Positions 3,191-42,763 are shown, counted from the first letter of the stretch. The stretch: 45,433 nucleotides of DNA from an uncultured Candidatus Saccharibacteria bacterium (GCA_964360335.1 CAYHVH010000001.1:89426-134858); one strand, 5' to 3'. Made by a program: numbers and translations. Notes: generated from the sequence alone by a model not told the origin.

Positions 3191-3265
3191 TGGTAGCCCC
3201 ACGGGGAATCGAACCCCGATTCGCAGCTTGAAAAGCTGCTGTCCTAACCATTAGACGATGGGGCC
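3191..3265 (-). tRNA. tRNA-Glu (TTC)
   Basis: Full cloverleaf; anticodon arm GCAGC-TTTTCAA-GCTGC; T-loop TTCGATT; encoded CCA. Confidence 0.96.
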
Positions 3266-3344
3266 ACAAAGGCTCAATTAATTTAGCAAAAAAAAACAAA
3301 AAAATCAATTAACAACGAGGCGGCAAAGCTGCTATACTTTATAT

Positions 3345-4121: not shown

Positions 4122-4622
4122 TCAGTGCGGCTTAATATATAGGTAGACGCCCGCTTCTTTTTTCTCCTCCTGCCAGCCGGGGAGCGGGAACGCAAAGGAG
4201 ACGACCCGCGCCCCTGGTTTGAGTTCGCGCTTCAGCTTCTGCCCAAGTTTTTTCATGATGTAGCCGATGCCATAGACTACCACGACATCAAATGCGGCCA
4301 AATCTTTGCCCCAAAAACTTTTCAGGTGGATAAAAGCTCGGCGCTGCAGCCCCGCCTGACTAATGTTGCGGCGCGACCACCAGACGAGAAGCGGGTTGAT
4401 TTCGTAGCCGTGGGCGATTGCTCCCGCCTCGGCCAGGGCGATGACGATTCGGCCGTCGCCCGAGCCCAAATCAGCAGCCAGCTCCCCGGATTTCACCGCC
4501 AGAAGTTTAATCATGAATTCCACTTTGGCAGGCGCGCTGGGGACAAATGTCGCCCCTTGGGCAAACGAATAAATCAAAGCCAGCACCAGGATCAGGAACA
4601 GCAAGCCAAGGGCAATTTCCAT
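4122..4622 (-). CDS. Class I SAM-dependent methyltransferase with N-terminal TM helix
   Basis: GATFVPS, DLGSGDGRIV, GYEINP and LKPGARVVS motifs. Confidence 0.9.
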   Translation of the reverse strand: MEIALGLLFLILVLALIYSFAQGATFVPSAPAKVEFMIKLLAVKSGELAADLGSGDGRIVIALAEAGAIAHGYEINPLLVWWSRRNISQAGLQRRAFIHLKSFWGKDLAAFDVVVVYGIGYIMKKLGQKLKRELKPGARVVSFAFPLPGWQEEKKEAGVYLYIKPH

Positions 4623-4714: not shown

Positions 4715-5374
4715 ATGCTTGATAGCCATTGGCGGAAATTATTTTTTCTGATACTTCTGGTTCTGCTCTTGGCGTTGCTGTTTTGGTATTCTGCTTCCTT
4801 TCAGGAGGTTTTTTTTGGCTCCGTGGATTTTTTGGAGGGTTATGCCAATCGCCACATCCTCCTGGCCGAGGGGATTTTTGTGGGAGCGGCCGCTCTTTCC
4901 GCCATGTTTTCGCCCTTTAGCAGCGTTCCCCTGGTGCCGGCCGCCCTTGTCATCTGGGACAGTGGTTTGACCTTGAGTTTGCTTTTGCTGGGATGGCTTT
5001 TGGGAGGAATCGGAGCTTATCTCGTTGGCCGCTACGCTCTGTATCAACTCTTGCGCCGCGTCCTGGATATTGACGGAAAAGTTGATTACTATCGAAAAAA
5101 AATTTCCCCTCGGGCGGAGTTTGGACTGGTGTTGCTGTTCCGTTTTGCCATGCCGGCGGAAATTCCCGGTTATGTTCTCGGCGCTATTCGTTATCACTTC
5201 GGGAAGTATTTTTTGGCGACTTTTTTAGCTGAATTCCCATTCGCCGTCATAACCGTCTACGCCAGCGAAGCCTTGATATTCAAAGAGCCGGTTCTGCTCG
5301 GGGCTTTGGGTTTATTGGTGACTCTGATTTTGGGCGGCGCGCTTTATTTTTTCCGCAAAAAACTCCGGGATTGA
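4715..5374 (+). CDS. VTT/TVP38 (DedA superfamily) membrane protein
   Basis: Multi-TM; AYLVGRY, LLFRFAMP and YFLATFL motifs. Confidence 0.8.
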   Translation: MLDSHWRKLFFLILLVLLLALLFWYSASFQEVFFGSVDFLEGYANRHILLAEGIFVGAAALSAMFSPFSSVPLVPAALVIWDSGLTLSLLLLGWLLGGIGAYLVGRYALYQLLRRVLDIDGKVDYYRKKISPRAEFGLVLLFRFAMPAEIPGYVLGAIRYHFGKYFLATFLAEFPFAVITVYASEALIFKEPVLLGALGLLVTLILGGALYFFRKKLRD

Positions 5375-5452: not shown

Positions 5453-6055
5453 ATGATAAAGAAACAAATCCGGGCAATTGTTTTTGATTTGGGCGGGGTG
5501 GTGGTGCATGGCGGCTACCTCGATTTTCTTAAACATTTTTGTACCACCTGCATGACCCCGGAAGGAAAAAAGCAAGTCGCTCGGCTGGAGCGCCAGGCAA
5601 ATCTCGGAAATCTTACGGAGCGGGAATTTTTGAGAAAATTGCGATGGATTTTTGGCTTGCACCTCTCGGTTTCCCGGATGCACGACCTGATTGTGGACCA
5701 TATGCAAACTGATAAGCGGTTGGCGCATCTGATTCCGAAACTTAAAAAGACCAGAATTGCCTTGTTTAGCAATTCTATCGGCAATATGGCGGTGGAAGTT
5801 TTACATAAAAGGCATCTTAATTCCCATCGGCTTTTCGGGCGAGTGTTTATTTCCTCCAGATTGCATTTAGTGAAGCCAGATCAGAAAGCTTATCATTATA
5901 TTTTGAGAGCGTTAAAGGTTAAACCCCGAGAAGCCCTGATGGTTGACGATCGGTTAGTTAACATCCAGGGCGCTAGAAAAGCAGGAATGGAAGGAATTGT
6001 CTACAAAAATTCCGCTCAGTTTCGCAGAGCGATTCGCAAATATGAGTTTGTCTAA
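5453..6055 (+). CDS. HAD superfamily hydrolase
   Basis: FDLGGV, SN, KPD and MVDD...NIQGA motifs. Confidence 0.88.
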   Translation: MIKKQIRAIVFDLGGVVVHGGYLDFLKHFCTTCMTPEGKKQVARLERQANLGNLTEREFLRKLRWIFGLHLSVSRMHDLIVDHMQTDKRLAHLIPKLKKTRIALFSNSIGNMAVEVLHKRHLNSHRLFGRVFISSRLHLVKPDQKAYHYILRALKVKPREALMVDDRLVNIQGARKAGMEGIVYKNSAQFRRAIRKYEFV

Positions 6056-39267: not shown

Positions 39268-41559
39268 TCACTCCTTTTCTTTTTCTTTTGTTTCTCCGGC
39301 CTGCCCGCTCTGCCCTGGATACTTCCAAGTCGCGTAGTCGCATTTCGGATAGCGGTTGCAGCCCCAGAAAGTTCGGCCTTTTCTGGTGCGCTTTTCAACG
39401 AGTTGTCCTTCGCCGCACTGGGAACAAGCCACTCCAGTGTTTTTTTCAATTTTTTCAACGTGTTTGCATTCCGGGTAGCGGGAGCAACCCAAGAAATAGC
39501 CGAATTTGCCGCGGCGGACCAGAAGTTCGCCTTGAGCGCAGGTGGGGCACTTCTTGCCGCCGTTCTCGGCCTGCAGCTTTTTCTGTATCGCTTCGTCTTC
39601 CGGCAGAGGCTTGGTCCCTTTGCAGTTGGGGTAGTCAGAGCAGGCCAGAAACTGGCCGAAGCGCCCGAATTTTTTAAGCATGGGCTTGCCGCAAATCGGG
39701 CAGGGAATATCCGTTTGTTCCTGATGCTTTTCCACTGTAATTTTCTTTTCTTCCAGGTGCGATTTGAAGGGTTTGTAAAATTCGTGAATCACGGGCTGCC
39801 ATTTGAGCTTTCCTGCGGCAATGTCATCAAGCTCTTCTTCCATGTGGGCCGTAAATTGAAAATCCACAATCTCGGGAAAGTGTTCTACCAAGAGGTCGTT
39901 TACAATAGTGCCGATTTCGGTGGGGAAAAACTTTCGCTCTTTCCGGGTTACATAGTCACGTTCAATAATGGTGGAAATTGTCGGCGCATAAGTTGACGGC
40001 CGGCCGATGCCATATTCCTCGAGCGTTTTGACTAAGCTGGCGTCGGTGTAGCGTGGCGGCGGTTCCGTGAAGTGCTGTTTACCCTCCACGCCGAGACTCG
40101 TGAGAGACTCATGGGCTTTAAGCTTTGGCAGCTGCCCTTCCGGAAGCTCTTCCGTACTTTCTGTTTCATCCCGCCCCTCGGTGTAGATTTTGATGAAACC
40201 GTCAAATTTCAGGACTTGCCCGGTGGCGCGGAAAAGGTATTTACCGTTTTTACCCTCTCCCCTGGCGAGGGGAGAGTAGGAGAGAGGTTGCCGGCTTGGC
40301 GATGGTTCGACCTCTCCCTTCATCCCTCCCCACGCCTGGGGAGGGAGATCAGCCATAATATCCACAGTCGTTTGGTCAAAAACTGCCTCCGGCATTTGGG
40401 AAGCGAGCGTGCGCTTGAAGATGAGGTCGTAAAGTTTGGCTGATGGTACCTCCAGCGTGCCCTCCAGAAGTTCCGGGTCTTTCATGAGGTCGGTGGGGCG
40501 GATGGCTTCGTGCGCTTCCTGCGCGCCTTTGCTTTTGGTTTTATAGCGGCGCGGGGAGGGGAGCGCGTAGGCCTGGCCAAACTTTTTAGAAATCACTTCC
40601 TGGGCCTGCCGCAGAGCGCTTTCGGCGAGATTGACCGAGTCCGTGCGCATGTAGGTGATATAACCCGTTTCGTAGAGTTCCTGGGCGAACATCATGGTTT
40701 GTTTGGCCGTGAATCCCAGTTTGCGCGCCGCTTCTTGCTGGAGCGTGGAGGTCGTAAACGGAGCGGCCGGGAAGCGGCGGGCTTCTTTTTCTTTAACCTC
40801 TATAATTTGGTATTTTGCTCCTTGCAGCTCGCCGACAATCTTGTCGGCTTTGGCCTTTGTACCAATATCAAACTTTTTCAAAGTTACCCCGTTCACTTCG
40901 TGGAGTTTGGCCAGAAACGCCTGATTGTCCGGTTCGCCGCCCTTTTTCAGCTTCGCCTCAATCGTCCAGTATTCTTGCGCCTTGAATTTCTCAATTTCCC
41001 TTTCCCGCTCGACAATCAGCCGGAGTGCCACAGACTGGACCCGGCCGGCGGAAAGACCGCGCCGCACTTTTTTCCATAAGAAGGGTGAGAGTTCGTAGCC
41101 TACGAGCCGATCCAGGATGCGGCGGGCCTGTTGGGCATCTACCAGTTTGAGGTCAATCTCGCGGGGATGTTTCAGCGCTTCTTCGATGGCTGGCTTGGTG
41201 ATTTCATGAAACACAATCCTTTGTACTAATTTTGATTTTTGATTTTTGATTTTTGATTTCGCAAGCTCCAGGGCTTGCGTGAGGTGCCAGGCGATCGCCT
41301 CGCCCTCCCGGTCCTCGTCAGTGGCGAGAATCACTTCCGGGGCTTTGCTGGCGAGTTTTTTGAGAGCGGACACGCGTTTTTGGGCCGTTTTCGGTACCAC
41401 ATATTCCGGCTCGAAATTATTCTTGAGGTCAACTCCCATTTTACTTTTCGGCAGATCGCGAATGTGGCCAAAAGAGGATTCGATTCGGTAGTCCTTGCCC
41501 AAAAATTTACTTATCGTCTTTGCTTTAGTCGGTGATTCAACGATGATTAATTTTGTCAT
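39268..41559 (-). CDS. topA: DNA topoisomerase I (type IA) with three C-terminal Zn ribbons
   Basis: IVESPTK, ATDEDREGE, SAGRVQS, ITYMRTDS and GIGRPSTY motifs. Confidence 0.98.
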   Translation of the reverse strand: MTKLIIVESPTKAKTISKFLGKDYRIESSFGHIRDLPKSKMGVDLKNNFEPEYVVPKTAQKRVSALKKLASKAPEVILATDEDREGEAIAWHLTQALELAKSKIKNQKSKLVQRIVFHEITKPAIEEALKHPREIDLKLVDAQQARRILDRLVGYELSPFLWKKVRRGLSAGRVQSVALRLIVEREREIEKFKAQEYWTIEAKLKKGGEPDNQAFLAKLHEVNGVTLKKFDIGTKAKADKIVGELQGAKYQIIEVKEKEARRFPAAPFTTSTLQQEAARKLGFTAKQTMMFAQELYETGYITYMRTDSVNLAESALRQAQEVISKKFGQAYALPSPRRYKTKSKGAQEAHEAIRPTDLMKDPELLEGTLEVPSAKLYDLIFKRTLASQMPEAVFDQTTVDIMADLPPQAWGGMKGEVEPSPSRQPLSYSPLARGEGKNGKYLFRATGQVLKFDGFIKIYTEGRDETESTEELPEGQLPKLKAHESLTSLGVEGKQHFTEPPPRYTDASLVKTLEEYGIGRPSTYAPTISTIIERDYVTRKERKFFPTEIGTIVNDLLVEHFPEIVDFQFTAHMEEELDDIAAGKLKWQPVIHEFYKPFKSHLEEKKITVEKHQEQTDIPCPICGKPMLKKFGRFGQFLACSDYPNCKGTKPLPEDEAIQKKLQAENGGKKCPTCAQGELLVRRGKFGYFLGCSRYPECKHVEKIEKNTGVACSQCGEGQLVEKRTRKGRTFWGCNRYPKCDYATWKYPGQSGQAGETKEKEKE
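40253..40347. repeat. CCCTCCCC-family palindromes (two, inverted), in frame in topA
   Basis: Encodes LPPQAWGGMKGEVEPSPSRQPLSYSPLARGEG; 40304-40345 matches the reverse complement of 32239-32280 at 40/42. Confidence 0.85.
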
Positions 41560-41909
41560 TGTTTTTGTCCCGATCCCGACACTAAGTGTCGCGGATCGAG
41601 GATCCTCGATTTTGTTCTAAATTTAAATAGTCTTTCAATAGCTTTGCGACTTTTCCACTTTTTTATTTGTAATTCTCTCTTTCTTGCATCCTTCAAGCTT
41701 GCAAAGCTTTCGTAGCAAACAATTCTCCACGGTATATCAAATTTTGTCGATTTTACAACCCCAGAATTATGTTGTTTTAATCGTTGAACATAATCGTTCG
41801 CGCATCCAACGTAATACTTTCCAGACTTGAGCGATTTTAATATGTAGCAATAAAATTTAGACAAAATCGGGACCTTGGTTGGTGATTCGACAATCACGAG
41901 TTTGCTCAC
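41556..41909 (-). CDS. Small GIY-YIG nuclease fused to a copy of the TopA N-terminus
   Basis: CYIL...YYVG, RLKQHN, STK and RELQIK motifs; begins MSKLVIVESPTK. Confidence 0.9.
   Translation of the reverse strand: MSKLVIVESPTKVPILSKFYCYILKSLKSGKYYVGCANDYVQRLKQHNSGVVKSTKFDIPWRIVCYESFASLKDARKRELQIKKWKSRKAIERLFKFRTKSRILDPRHLVSGSGQKQ
41567..41873. mobile_element. AT-rich GIY-YIG cassette bounded by GTCCCGAT/ATCGGGAC inverted repeats
   Basis: 8-bp IR at 41567-41574 and 41866-41873; lies between two topA 5' ends. Confidence 0.6.
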
Positions 41910-41993
41910 CCCGTTAGAAATCCTGGAAGTTTATAGAGTAAAAAATGCATTTTTTAGTTTTAGCTCGTTAGATAAGAAAAGATTTCTAACAGG
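41909..41993. mobile_element. MITE-like 85-bp element
   Basis: CCCGTTAGAAATC/GATTTCTAACAGG ends flanked by GCTCA direct repeats (41904-41908, 41994-41998). Confidence 0.55.
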
Positions 41994-42010
41994 GCTCATA
42001 GCCCTAAGTT

Positions 42011-42763
42011 TTATTTGGTTTTGTGTTTCTTGTCAAGGGTTTTGCGAAAAACTTTGAGGAGCGGAGCGTATAAATCTTCGGTTTCAGGTACGAGCCAGTC
42101 GCGGTACGAGTCCTTGCTCGAAAATTTTGCTTCTTGGCACCCACGGATTAGAGCCAGCGGGGTTTGCTCGTTGCTTTCGCCAATCACCAGGGGCGCGGCG
42201 GCCGCTAACGAATCAATGAGATTAACCTGCGTATGTCTCAGTGCGGCGCCAAAAATACTGCGTTTTCCCGTGTAATCTAAAAGCGGTTCAATACCATAAA
42301 ATCCCAGCGCCACTCCCACGGTCCCGCGCCGCAGCGGTACTGTATGGCTGTCGGTTATAATCACCCCAAGATTTATGAGTTTAAATTTATGTCTCAAATA
42401 CCGCCAGATCGCTTTTGCGGCTTTTACAGGATTTTTGGGCCAGAGGATGTAGTAGCCACGACCATTGCTGGAATCAATGCCGGAAGAGGAGATGAGGGTA
42501 TGGGTTTTGATGGTGAGGAGCGCTAACCTTCCCGGCACTCGACGGCGTGGTATGTATTTTTCGGCTTCGTTGAGGATTAATTTATCTTTGTTGAGACCTT
42601 TTGTGATTTTGACGCACCGTCCCTGGTGTACGCTTACCACTTTTGAGGTTACCAGCAAAATATCGCCTTCGCGAAGTTTGGGAAGTGATTCGTCGAGCAC
42701 GGCGAACAGATCATCTTTGGGCGGCCGCATCGCCCGGGTTTTGACAGGAATAAACCGCATCAT
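42011..42763 (-). CDS. CofE-like gamma-glutamyl ligase (F420-0:L-glutamate ligase family)
   Basis: TSKVVS..QG, SGIDSSN, GVIITDSH..PLRRG and GESNEQTP motifs. Confidence 0.85.
   Translation of the reverse strand: MMRFIPVKTRAMRPPKDDLFAVLDESLPKLREGDILLVTSKVVSVHQGRCVKITKGLNKDKLILNEAEKYIPRRRVPGRLALLTIKTHTLISSSGIDSSNGRGYYILWPKNPVKAAKAIWRYLRHKFKLINLGVIITDSHTVPLRRGTVGVALGFYGIEPLLDYTGKRSIFGAALRHTQVNLIDSLAAAAPLVIGESNEQTPLALIRGCQEAKFSSKDSYRDWLVPETEDLYAPLLKVFRKTLDKKHKTK

Follow-up and report, generated by a model that had tools for sequence, protein, structure and literature searches.

A GIY-YIG nuclease cassette and a second gene start at the 5' end of topA in an uncultured Saccharibacteria bacterium

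The start of the topoisomerase gene topA in an uncultured Candidatus Saccharibacteria bacterium is interrupted by a small cassette that encodes a GIY-YIG nuclease, has complementary ends, and is followed by a second, different version of the same start. The locus lies on the minus strand of a 45,433-nucleotide stretch of DNA (GCA_964360335.1 CAYHVH010000001.1:89426-134858), the whole of which is referred to below as the window, and its parts are collected in Table 1. The cassette stands after codon 12 of topA, and because the copy of codons 1 to 12 on its far side carries its own ATG, full-length TopA is still encoded. On balance, we favor the reading that this is a selfish cassette resident in the 5' end of an essential single-copy gene, resembling an intron-less homing element and accompanied by a spare gene start. 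Homing itself is inferred, and the element is a candidate for, rather than a proven member of, the intron-less homing class. All parts listed in a preliminary description of the locus, which had been made from the sequence alone, were found on the minus strand when the coordinates were rechecked.

Copy 1 of the start (GTG AGC AAA CTC GTG ATT GTC GAA TCA CCA ACC AAG, 41909-41874) opens the nuclease reading frame (ORF), and copy 2 (ATG ACA AAA TTA ATC ATC GTT GAA TCA CCG ACT AAA, 41559-41524) runs on into a topA whose 763-residue product contained Toprim, Topoisom_bac (E 3.5e-128), and three zinc ribbons in a Pfam search. The two copies were identical at 10/12 residues and 25/36 bases, and the repeat search scored them as 71% identical over 34 nt at a spacing of 350. 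The GC content was 0.32-0.39 over positions 41550-41950 and 0.45-0.63 in the adjoining DNA, and no short duplication was found flanking the cassette (...CCAAG| on one side and |AAAAACA on the other). The host genome (G000) comprises 824 kb in 36 contigs, is 94.7% complete, and has 51.5% GC, with relatives measuring 0.5-1.6 Mb; it carries 43 tRNA genes, and every isoacceptor except Met is single copy.

A similar layout would result if the assembly had wrongly linked a GIY-YIG gene with topA by way of the repeated start, and the genome is a metagenome-assembled one in which the 5' junction was spanned, among the sequencing runs, only by a contig from a possible source sample. This explanation is effectively refuted and can be regarded as excluded for practical purposes. 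The runs that contain this DNA are groundwater metagenomes. A 910-nt contig of run X1 (perhaps the source sample) spanned positions 41300-42100 with 0 differences, and in run X5, which belongs to a second study, a 334-nt contig bridged the cassette/copy-2 junction (41380-41713), likewise with 0 differences. Furthermore, locus L035 (98% identical protein) holds both junctions, loci from other metagenome records (L036, L037, L038, and L065) have homologous junctions at 76% protein identity, and six database proteins show the same fusion. The assembly, which the preliminary description had proposed to verify with reads, is supported by the X1 and X5 contigs together with L035, L036, L037, and L038. 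Parts of the stretch lacked cover in runs X4, X5, and X6, and no conclusion was drawn from this.

The insertion is site specific and is no one-off. A search of 5.8 billion protein clusters returned 44 homologues of the nuclease, and 6 of the 16 that were fetched begin with x-x-L[VI][IV]VESPTK|VPIL[SP]KFYCY, in which the first residues differ; these six are 97-104 aa long and 61-77% identical. Their junctions read MGKLVIVESPTK|VPILPKFYCY, MNKSLVIVESPTK|VPIL..., MAKTLVIVESPTK|VPIL..., ...TTLIVVESPTK|VPIL..., MNLIIVESPTK|VPIL..., and MNLVIVESPTK|VPIL.... A second search limited to residues 1-40 recovered five of the six and nothing new. At the DNA level, L036, L037, and L038 repeat the full layout, namely, copy 1, the cassette, an identical GGGATCGGGACAAAAACAATG, copy 2, and topA. 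The site is empty elsewhere: all 29 topA loci examined in relatives, drawn from 8 additional genera in the family and from other families in the order, were uninterrupted (...VESPTK followed by A/G-K/R-T-I), and the segment that is repeated around the insert is single copy in each of them. None of the 8 other genera carried the cassette, and a degenerate junction pattern matched 1/146 genomes of the order and 1/401 of a phylum sample, the single match being the host genome each time. Locus L073, among the matches listed, was rejected as a junction member, since the pattern L[VI][IV]VESPTK also matches ordinary topA starts and the topA of L073 is uninterrupted.

The divergence of element and host was compared for the one pair with DNA, the window and L036. 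The two are syntenic over about 8 kb at 67-73% nucleotide identity, with DprA-like, CapA-like, and F420-ligase-family genes, the cassette, topA, and purF in the same arrangement. Nucleotide identity was 78% for the cassette ORF and 72% for the first 100 topA codons, and it peaked at the cassette ends (28/30 and 27/30 in the first and second-to-last 30-nt windows). Synonymous differences in the first 100 topA codons were saturated (pS 0.855; pN 0.108), and since the cassette is present on both sides, the insertion predates the split between the window and L036. The cassette ORF gave a dN/dS of 0.10 (pN 0.115, pS 0.62), which points to purifying selection on the nuclease since before that split.

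A GIY-YIG domain in frame with copy 1 had been proposed and was confirmed: the 117-aa ORF matched Pfam PF01541 with an E value of 4.7e-15 over residues 18-88 (56.1 bits against a cutoff of 22.6; profile positions 1-74 of 78). Invariant in 7/7 topA-resident sequences were GIY, YIG, R43, H47, N48, and E79 (with Y20/Y22 and Y32/Y33/G35). A profile built from the seven sequences and run against PDB matched the UPF0213 structures 1zg2 (8.9e-8) and 1ywl (1.2e-6) and the SLX1 structure 7cq2 (1.6e-6), with other SLX1 chains weaker; no I-TevI or UvrC chain appeared at E <= 0.01. No NCBIfam model and no second Pfam domain was found for the protein. As judged from these matches, the nuclease belongs to the minimal Slx1/UPF0213 (YhbQ-like) clade of the superfamily. 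Searches for an intron or intein context gave only tRNA matches in Rfam (window, L036, L040, L041, and L042) and no Hint/intein domain in Pfam, and the cassette has about 40-50 nt outside the ancestral ORF. Slx1 enzymes cleave branched DNA, and the hairpin-forming ends, together with the loop positions of the tRNA insertions described below, suggest an action guided by structure. To our knowledge, prokaryotic Slx1-family proteins have no assigned role, and GIY-YIG nucleases are not a known bacterial transposase family. A 2006 survey of the superfamily, in its available text, describes the prokaryotic Slx1 family as minimal stand-alone domains that are mostly vertically inherited and asks whether further GIY-YIG members are molecular parasites (PMC1564403).

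The ends of the cassette are conserved as a structured unit. Six ORF-bearing elements were compared, those of the window and L036 and four from tRNA genes (L039, L040, L041, and L042), and in 6/6 the first 20-30 bases were complementary to the bases just before a palindrome (z 7.4-14.7, 200 shuffles). In the window, this larger inverted repeat encloses the ORF with 20 complementary bases (z 7.4, 200 shuffles), and a one-base bulge in the repeat is conserved in all six elements. The inner part of the repeat differs between two clades (TTTTGTCTAAATTT versus TTATAAAACTTTGAAATG), each with its own complement. RNAalifold recovered nine terminal pairs in 6/6 elements, with one compensatory change (CG in five, UA in L042); for the second stem, which it misaligned between the clades, its output was set aside, and complementarity was measured in each element instead. 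The 8-mer pair GTCCCGAT/ATCGGGAC was ruled out as evidence when taken alone because it stands at chance level in the window (2 matches with 1.49 expected; at least 2 in 45/100 shuffles).

The inverted repeat is followed by the palindrome (ATCGAGGATCCTCGAT or a variant close to it), then by a variable hairpin, and last by ATCGGGA(C), another complement of the 5' end. Two partners are available to the 5' end, namely, the palindrome's left half and the 3' terminus, and the palindrome's right half can pair with whichever of them is left, so that two alternative folds or a four-way junction would be possible. Whole-element RNA folds were predicted to pair the ends and to form a strong 3' hairpin (z -3.4 and -4.6), and complementary ends are equally compatible with RNA structure and with DNA inverted repeats. 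The stem of the variable hairpin is kept in L036 with a different loop and with indels, and in tRNA-resident relatives the homologous stem encloses a spare tRNA, a cargo position that was read in L041 and on contig C21 of the host genome. Across the 824-kb genome, the palindrome pattern occurred in the topA cassette and three times on C21 and nowhere else. Terminal inverted repeats are common to ORF-bearing (6/6) and ORF-less copies. Neither a fixed short target-site duplication nor a known transposase, both of which characterize DNA transposons, was found, and the sole ORF encodes the GIY-YIG nuclease.

Parallels come from tRNA genes, where cassettes with the same ends and palindrome split the gene and carry an intact spare tRNA; the preliminary description had called for a search for parallel cases with GTCCCGAT/ATCGGGAC ends, and these answer it. 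In L041, the break in an outer tRNA-Ala(CGC) falls within the anticodon (...CGTCA TTCG|TCCCGAT ... ATCGGGA|CAT TGACG...), an intact inner tRNA-Ala(CGC) of different sequence (3220-3291) lies inside the element within the last hairpin, and a second, ORF-less mini-insert with the same ends sits in the D loop of the outer tRNA. L040 is similar and also has a small copy in the D loop of its outer tRNA. L042 is roughly reciprocal to L041, as its inner copy is of the L041 outer type and its outer 5' piece is of the L041 inner type: the outer 5' pieces of L041 agreed with the L042 inner copy at 14/18 and 16/16 positions (alternative, 4 and 8/9), and the outer 5' piece of L042 agreed with the L041 inner copy at 19/20 (alternative, 16/20). 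The outer 3' half in L041 is of mixed type.

In the host genome itself, three ORF-less mini-elements surround the sole tRNA-Thr(TGT) gene (5206-5278) at C21:4900-5420, in the order CTCCGAT, small hairpin, palindrome, stem, tRNA, stem, and ATCGGGA. They are surrounded in turn by pieces of tRNA-Thr genes, three from the 5' and two from the 3' side, broken at TTTTG|TAAAC. The nest is not perfectly concentric, and because one 5' and one 3' fragment do not match, it must have been rearranged. The break falls between anticodon positions 35 and 36, after a G, in tRNA-Ala, tRNA-Thr, and tRNA-Ser (L009), and the break in topA also follows a G. All tRNA cases that were read combine an intact spare gene with an outer copy disabled by additional insertions; in several, the intact copy differs in sequence and lies inside the element.

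Other sister loci show repeated tRNA segments on both sides of the ORF (L053, L046, L045, L009, and L008), comprising about 100 nt with the tRNA 5' part in L053 (z 43) and L046, the 3' part of a tRNA-Pro in L045, and the 5' three-quarters of a tRNA-Val in L008. A scan for flanking direct repeats gave z > 5 in 14/53 ORF contexts, a count that is a lower bound because diverged repeats are missed and the topA loci themselves score low (L035, z 1.6; L038, z 2.7); five of the 14 were read as tRNA segments, and others were hairpin repeats. Members of the family are located mainly within tRNA genes or a short way ahead of them. A tRNA gene lay within 150 nt of 12/32 distinct GIY-YIG ORFs in relatives and of 12/27 in the metagenome, on the same strand in 24/24 pairs and mostly 10-97 nt downstream. 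In addition to the topA-resident gene, the host genome has four GIY-YIG ORFs (L002-L005, on contigs C30, C13, and C14) that are 26-41% identical to it and whose ends differ from those of the cassette. Three of them are closely followed by a tRNA gene on the same strand, namely, tRNA-Gln after 24 nt, tRNA-Ser after 256 nt, and a tRNA-Val that overlaps the end of its ORF; the fourth is at a contig end. An exhaustive search put the family at 5793 clusters (50% identity) at E <= 0.001 and 454 at E <= 1e-10. In 40 representatives chosen for a late match start, many N-terminal extensions look, by eye, like translated tRNA genes (e.g., ...VVGSNPT..., ...AEVVSSNL..., ...GVRVPAAPP..., and ...PLAHLVER...).

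Hairpins that consist of the end motifs only were also seen near tRNA genes. At L008:1445-1500, a closed hairpin, TCCCGAT-GCAC-ATCGGGA, replaces the anticodon arm of the tRNA-Val fragment, and in L047-L051, near position 4365, GTCCCGAT-ATCGA-ATCGGGA stands beside a tRNA-His. These may be excision footprints or minimal elements.

The two topA starts differ in ways that bear on the origin of copy 2. The DNA upstream of copy 1 (AAACTTAG...) is common to empty-site relatives, as read from in-frame translations. Upstream of copy 2, the spacer plus ATG (GGGATCGGGACAAAAACAATG) is identical at 21/21 positions in the window, L035, and L036, and the next codons agree at 22/30 between the window and L036; for copy 1, the same pair agrees at 27/30 nt. 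No similarity was found between the sequences upstream of the two ATGs (...ACTTAGGGCT versus ...GGGACAAAAACA). By hand count, the GC content in the window is 31% for copy 2 and 47% for copy 1, and in L036 it is 33% and 44%, respectively; the low value of copy 2 was set aside as too weak to prove an origin in the element, since AT-rich start codons beside a strong hairpin could be selected.

The reading frame of the nuclease has been altered at both ends within the topA clade. In L039-L042, the relatives that reside in tRNA genes, the 5' repeat is followed by a stop and by an ATG that belongs to the nuclease ORF itself (...AAATTTTAA ATG TTC TAT TGT... and ...TTTGAA ATG TTT TAT TGC...). The topA-resident clade lacks these nine bases, and its ORF is in frame with copy 1 in 7/7 sequences, so that a start borrowed from topA is supported as a derived character common to this clade. 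The earlier claim that the cassette borrows the translation signals of topA therefore holds for the fusion, in 7/7 without an ATG of the nuclease's own, and the GTG of the window comes from an unrelated repeat; the in-frame TTG at 41864 is a possible internal start. At the other end, the ORF of L036 and of all six homologues closes with ...KI* at a TAG inside the 3' inverted repeat, about 60 nt upstream of the window's stop. In the window and L035, a 1-nt deletion at this ancestral stop lets the frame run through the hairpins to a TGA that overlaps the topA ATG (ORF end, 41556; topA start, 41559).

Table 1. Parts of the topA-start locus, in order of transcription (window coordinates)
Feature	Position	Strand	Remark
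topA start remnant ATGAG	41995..41999	-	Rest of codons split off by repeat-element insertion
MITE-like inverted-repeat element, 86 nt (MITE, miniature inverted-repeat transposable element)	41909..41994	-	14-nt arms, 93% complementary; unrelated to the cassette
topA start copy 1, 12 codons (MSKLVIVESPTK), N-terminus of the nuclease ORF	41874..41909	-	
117-aa ORF: topA codons 1-12, GIY-YIG nuclease, and C-terminal run-on through the 3' hairpins	41556..41909	-	
Cassette proper, GTCCCGAT to ATCGGGAC	41567..41873	-	307 bp, AT-rich
5' terminal 8-mer GTCCCGAT	41866..41873	-	
5' inverted repeat, GTCCCGAT + TTTTGTCTAAATTT	41853..41873	-	In-frame TTG at 41864
3' inverted repeat AAATTTAGAACAAAA	41610..41624	-	Ancestral stop TAG lies in the repeat
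Perfect 16-bp palindrome ATCGAGGATCCTCGAT	41595..41610	-	
Variable hairpin CCGCGACAC-TTA-GTGTCGGG (CGACAC-TTA-GTGTCG)	41575..41594	-	
3' terminal ATCGGGAC, complement of 5' GTCCCGAT	41567..41574	-	
Spacer AAAAACA, before the functional topA ATG	41560..41566	-	
topA start copy 2 (MTKLIIVESPTK), continuous with the remaining topA	41524..41559	-	
Intact topA, 763 aa, single-copy	39268..41559	-	One topA match in the host genome

The repeat that supplies the GTG of copy 1 is inserted after the fifth base of ATG AGC AAA, where the homologous place in L036 is uninterrupted (ATG GGT AAA CTC). Its flanks read ...CT ATGAG|CCCTGTTAGAAATC...GATTTCTAACGGGG|TGAGCAAACTC, with TGAG present twice, and the GTG consists of the repeat's last G and the duplicated TGAG. 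Such inverted-repeat elements are abundant in the host genome and often abut gene starts: 31 inverted pairs (CCCCGTTAGA ... TCTAACGGGG) were found, with a median length of 82 nt, and because TGA is the commonest flanking triplet (10/31 and 8/31 on the two sides), many genes begin with a GTG made by the repeat's last G.

Further observations were made around the cassette and topA. Two contigs of run X6, a second-study metagenome, are too short to count as evidence; one continues from the 21-nt 5' end of the cassette (41853-41873) into a different flank, the other joins 41614 to 41853, skipping 238 nt, with a side of 20 nt, and they may point to other insertion sites and to ORF-less copies within the community. 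In another Patescibacteria genome (L073:3900-4450), the uninterrupted topA is preceded, at a distance of about 150 nt, by a GIY-YIG ORF from a different subfamily, and copies of a hairpin repeat of about 40 nt (CTGTCGTTCCTGCGCAGGCAGGAAC...) flank this ORF. Inside the window's topA, at about 41225-41260 on the minus strand, in-frame AAATCAA-type repeats encode ...AKSKIKNQKSKLVQ... in the Toprim region, and the aligned L036 TopA protein differs along this stretch. A promoter/terminator scan found 3 promoter-like sites where 1.3 were expected. Among these, TTGAAA-18-CAAAAT (41638-41609, minus strand) lies upstream of copy 2; it matches a consensus and no more, and no conclusion was based on it.

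If the locus holds a selfish cassette as proposed, the nuclease would break unoccupied target genes or resolve the structure at the element ends, and repair would copy in the cassette together with a spare gene segment, which at topA would comprise the spacer, the ATG, and 11 codons. The spare segment would keep the essential gene alive and would itself be a poor target, and the displaced original start would supply the translation of the nuclease. At topA, an ancient event would have been followed by mainly vertical upkeep, perhaps with renewed spread by homing. Recombination between the two starts would delete the element precisely, and such easy loss would explain the patchy distribution. 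It appears somewhat more probable than the reverse that copy 2 came with the element instead of arising from duplication of the target, because the spacer and ATG are conserved like a part of the cassette (21/21 against 22/30 in the following codons), because the two ATGs have no similarity upstream, and because copy 1 is the one that sits behind native sequence common to empty-site relatives.

Several results weigh against this account of the locus. The preliminary description had taken the second start for a recoded replacement, and nothing in the comparison points to directed recoding: the two copies agree in third positions at 3/10 in the window and 2/10 in L036 (hand count), about the saturation level (topA third positions of the window and L036 are alike at 41/100), and the copies differ no more than saturation predicts. 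Uninterrupted relatives, which that description had suggested comparing with the two starts, were found and showed no preference, resembling copy 1 and copy 2 equally (means of 20.8/30 and 20.9/30). The excess identity of copy 1 in the window/L036 comparison is of marginal significance (P 0.022 at p 0.73). The stop/start overlap (ATGA), put forward as translational coupling of nuclease and topA, is a recent lineage-specific accident and no feature of design, produced by the 1-nt deletion seen in the window and L035. Copy 2 lies outside the terminal ATCGGGAC, whereas the spare tRNAs of the sister elements lie inside the terminal repeat within the last hairpin, and the analogy between the topA cassette and the tRNA elements is therefore imperfect. 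In the nuclease, no DNA-binding module was found, the homologues of 97-104 aa ending a few residues past the catalytic domain; with a bare catalytic domain, recognition of a long site (15-30 bp of topA) in the way of I-TevI is unlikely. Of the idea of an intron-less homing element that targets the ESPTK codons, the intron-less and site-specific character thus stands, and the sequence makes recognition of ESPTK in the I-TevI manner unlikely. In addition, junction-bearing sequences number only 7 in the 5.8-billion-cluster library, no evidence of recent movement at topA was found, and vertical descent from one old insertion would be the simplest reading for the window and L036.

Some of these points would also fit a long target duplication, in which a staggered break and its repair doubled the first 36 bases of the host gene, so that the copies were once identical and have since drifted; only events that regenerated an intact gene would have survived, nothing would have been recoded, and no replacement would have been brought in. 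We consider this unlikely, though more probable than the other alternatives. In bacteria, nuclease genes of restriction-modification systems have been documented to insert with duplications of >30 bp and without a further mobility gene, according to the available part of PMC2853133; several sister loci (L053, L045, L009, and L008) show nothing more than a gene segment repeated on both sides of the ORF, in some cases nearly identically; and an insertion older than the window/L036 split (topA pS 0.855) has had time to accumulate 11/36 differences, which are at saturation level in the third positions. The fit of several sister loci to this documented route also weighs against copy 2 having come with the element. 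The earlier statement that the starts, being different, are not a fresh duplication stands to that extent, and an old, long duplication is still compatible with it. Against such an origin, the duplicated segment would need to begin exactly at the ATG, without similarity upstream, and the spacer and ATG behave as a conserved part of the cassette (21/21). Moreover, duplication of a target could not place a complete inner tRNA with another sequence within an outer anticodon loop, as found on C21 and in L041 and L042, and these nested loci imply that the element family does carry spare genes.

Two further alternatives concern what the cassette does now. A domesticated or otherwise immobile relic would stem from a single insertion whose nuclease was kept for the host, for instance in Slx1-like repair or resolution, expressed together with topoisomerase I, or for action in trans on the mini-elements; we regard this as quite improbable. 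It would fit the purifying selection (dN/dS 0.10), which persists despite the easy precise loss by recombination between the starts, the apparently vertical descent of the window and L036, the loss of the ORF's own ATG in favor of the host start, the presence of a different GIY-YIG ORF upstream of the uninterrupted topA of L073, and the mostly vertical inheritance of minimal prokaryotic Slx1-family domains reported in the available text of PMC1564403. Purifying selection is, however, equally expected for an active selfish nuclease, the distribution is very patchy (1/146 genomes of the order and 0/8 other genera of the family), the inverted-repeat ends and the palindrome are conserved and would be needless for the gene of a host enzyme, and miniatures and nested invasions of tRNA genes are hallmarks of mobility. 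Still more remote is an element acting at the RNA level, whose ends would pair in the transcript so that the cassette is cut out like an intron or, in the manner of intervening sequences in rRNA genes of the candidate phyla radiation (CPR), processed by RNase III, with the second start being incidental. The predicted transcript folds, with paired ends and a strong 3' hairpin, would suit it, as would GIY-YIG ORFs in CPR rRNA insertions that resemble neither group I nor group II introns, as described in the available text of PMC11270868. This view conflicts with the Rfam searches, which gave no intron or other match to the cassette in the window, L036, L040, L041, and L042, and with the 40-50 nt outside the ORF, which are too few for a ribozyme core; the second start makes splicing unnecessary, every tRNA case read has an intact spare gene beside a further disabled outer copy, and complementary ends are expected just as much for terminal inverted repeats of DNA.

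Beyond topA, it is possible, though we would not call it probable, that these loci represent an undescribed class of bacterial mobile elements: inverted-repeat cassettes that have a minimal Slx1-like, probably structure-guided nuclease as their sole protein, invade single-copy essential genes with a diverged spare copy, form Russian-doll nests through repeated invasion of the spare, mobilize miniatures in trans, and have been an overlooked major shaper of Patescibacteria tRNA genes. As parts of the same joint claim, the targets would be tRNA anticodon loops at 35/36 and topA at codons 12/13, and the reciprocal inner and outer alleles would record an arms race of spare genes and nucleases. The topA-resident nuclease may be the sole source for mobilizing the miniatures of this genome.

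A selfish nuclease element inside an essential single-copy gene, outside any intron or intein, would make a clean case in a bacterial chromosome, and its route of survival would be the carrying or creating of a spare copy of the displaced gene part. Such elements would link the many unexplained small GIY-YIG genes of Patescibacteria, the strong association of these genes with tRNA genes, and the non-intron GIY-YIG insertions in CPR rRNA genes (PMC11270868). For the question of molecular parasites, the two topA starts, the end structures, and the inner versus outer tRNA alleles offer a concrete, testable case with defined substrates. On the practical side, the nests produce fragments of tRNA genes and gene starts that gene callers apparently translate as false N-termini.

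Comparable arrangements are known from phages and organelles. In T-even phages, SegB is a free-standing GIY-YIG enzyme in a tRNA gene cluster, and mobA with a 50-nt bypass cassette lies in the topoisomerase gene 39/60. As in these cassettes, the nuclease ORF here lies outside any intron or intein, in or beside an essential gene that is thought to be targeted (tRNA or topoisomerase), DNA that comes with the insert preserves a working gene product, and the distribution among relatives is patchy. Unlike the larger T-even enzymes with their DNA-binding domains, the nuclease is a bare Slx1/UPF0213-type domain; the element has inverted-repeat ends, a palindrome, and miniatures, which the T-even cassettes lack; a broken outer gene copy is left in place, whereas the T-even cassettes replace flanks by homologous co-conversion; and the host is a bacterial chromosome. 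In fungal mitochondria, free-standing GIY-YIG and LAGLIDADG ORFs are fused in frame to an upstream gene and carry a duplicated gene end, and the in-frame fusion to a host gene, the diverged duplicate segment, the single intact copy, and the old piece left as a remnant all recur here. The fungal ORFs replace the 3' end of their host gene, whereas the topA cassette affects the 5' end, and the element must consequently also supply a start codon. The fungal ORFs are, moreover, organellar, belong to a different GIY-YIG clade, and are without inverted-repeat ends, whereas the present element is bacterial. In REPIN/RAYT systems, inverted palindromic repeats flank a single enzyme gene and derivatives without an ORF occur at other places in the genome, a combination that is also seen here.

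Among bacterial systems, the restriction-modification inserts of Helicobacter, Haemophilus, and others are flanked by direct repeats of >30 bp and have a single copy in empty-site genomes, according to the accessible text of PMC2853133. The topA cassette likewise encodes a nuclease, has neither transposase nor integrase, and is flanked by direct repeats of >30 bp (36 nt), with 25/36 positions identical, unlike the nearly identical repeats given in that text (e.g., 44/46; PMC2853133). It also differs in its conserved inverted-repeat ends and its recurrent single site across lineages, and the mechanism of the restriction-modification inserts leaves the nested spare genes unexplained. In CPR/Patescibacteria rRNA genes, according to the available text of PMC11270868, all of the GIY-YIG ORFs lie in insertions that resemble neither group I nor group II introns, and they share with the present elements the phylum and the residence of small GIY-YIG ORFs inside essential RNA genes. 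The searchable text of that paper deals with rRNA genes only, without mention of tRNA, and its account includes no end structure, spare gene copy, or protein-gene target, although the supplementary tables may list more. No published description was found of how the ends are built, of topA or tRNA genes as targets, or of the spare copies; for the GIY-YIG insertion sites, Table S3 and Fig. S3 of PMC11270868 may be relevant. Taken together, the protein belongs to the GIY-YIG superfamily within the Slx1/UPF0213 clade, and the element would work like an intron-less homing cassette, possibly of a new class. Integration into tRNA genes is mentioned in part of PMC2853133. Integrative elements that insert there and bring a substitute for the 3' tRNA segment share with the present element the restoration of the gene by element-borne sequence and a displaced fragment at the other end. 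In contrast to these and to REPIN/RAYT, it encodes a GIY-YIG nuclease and no integrase or tyrosine transposase, and where integrative elements use a recombinase core site, the present one stands inside the anticodon (35/36) or at codons 12/13 of topA.

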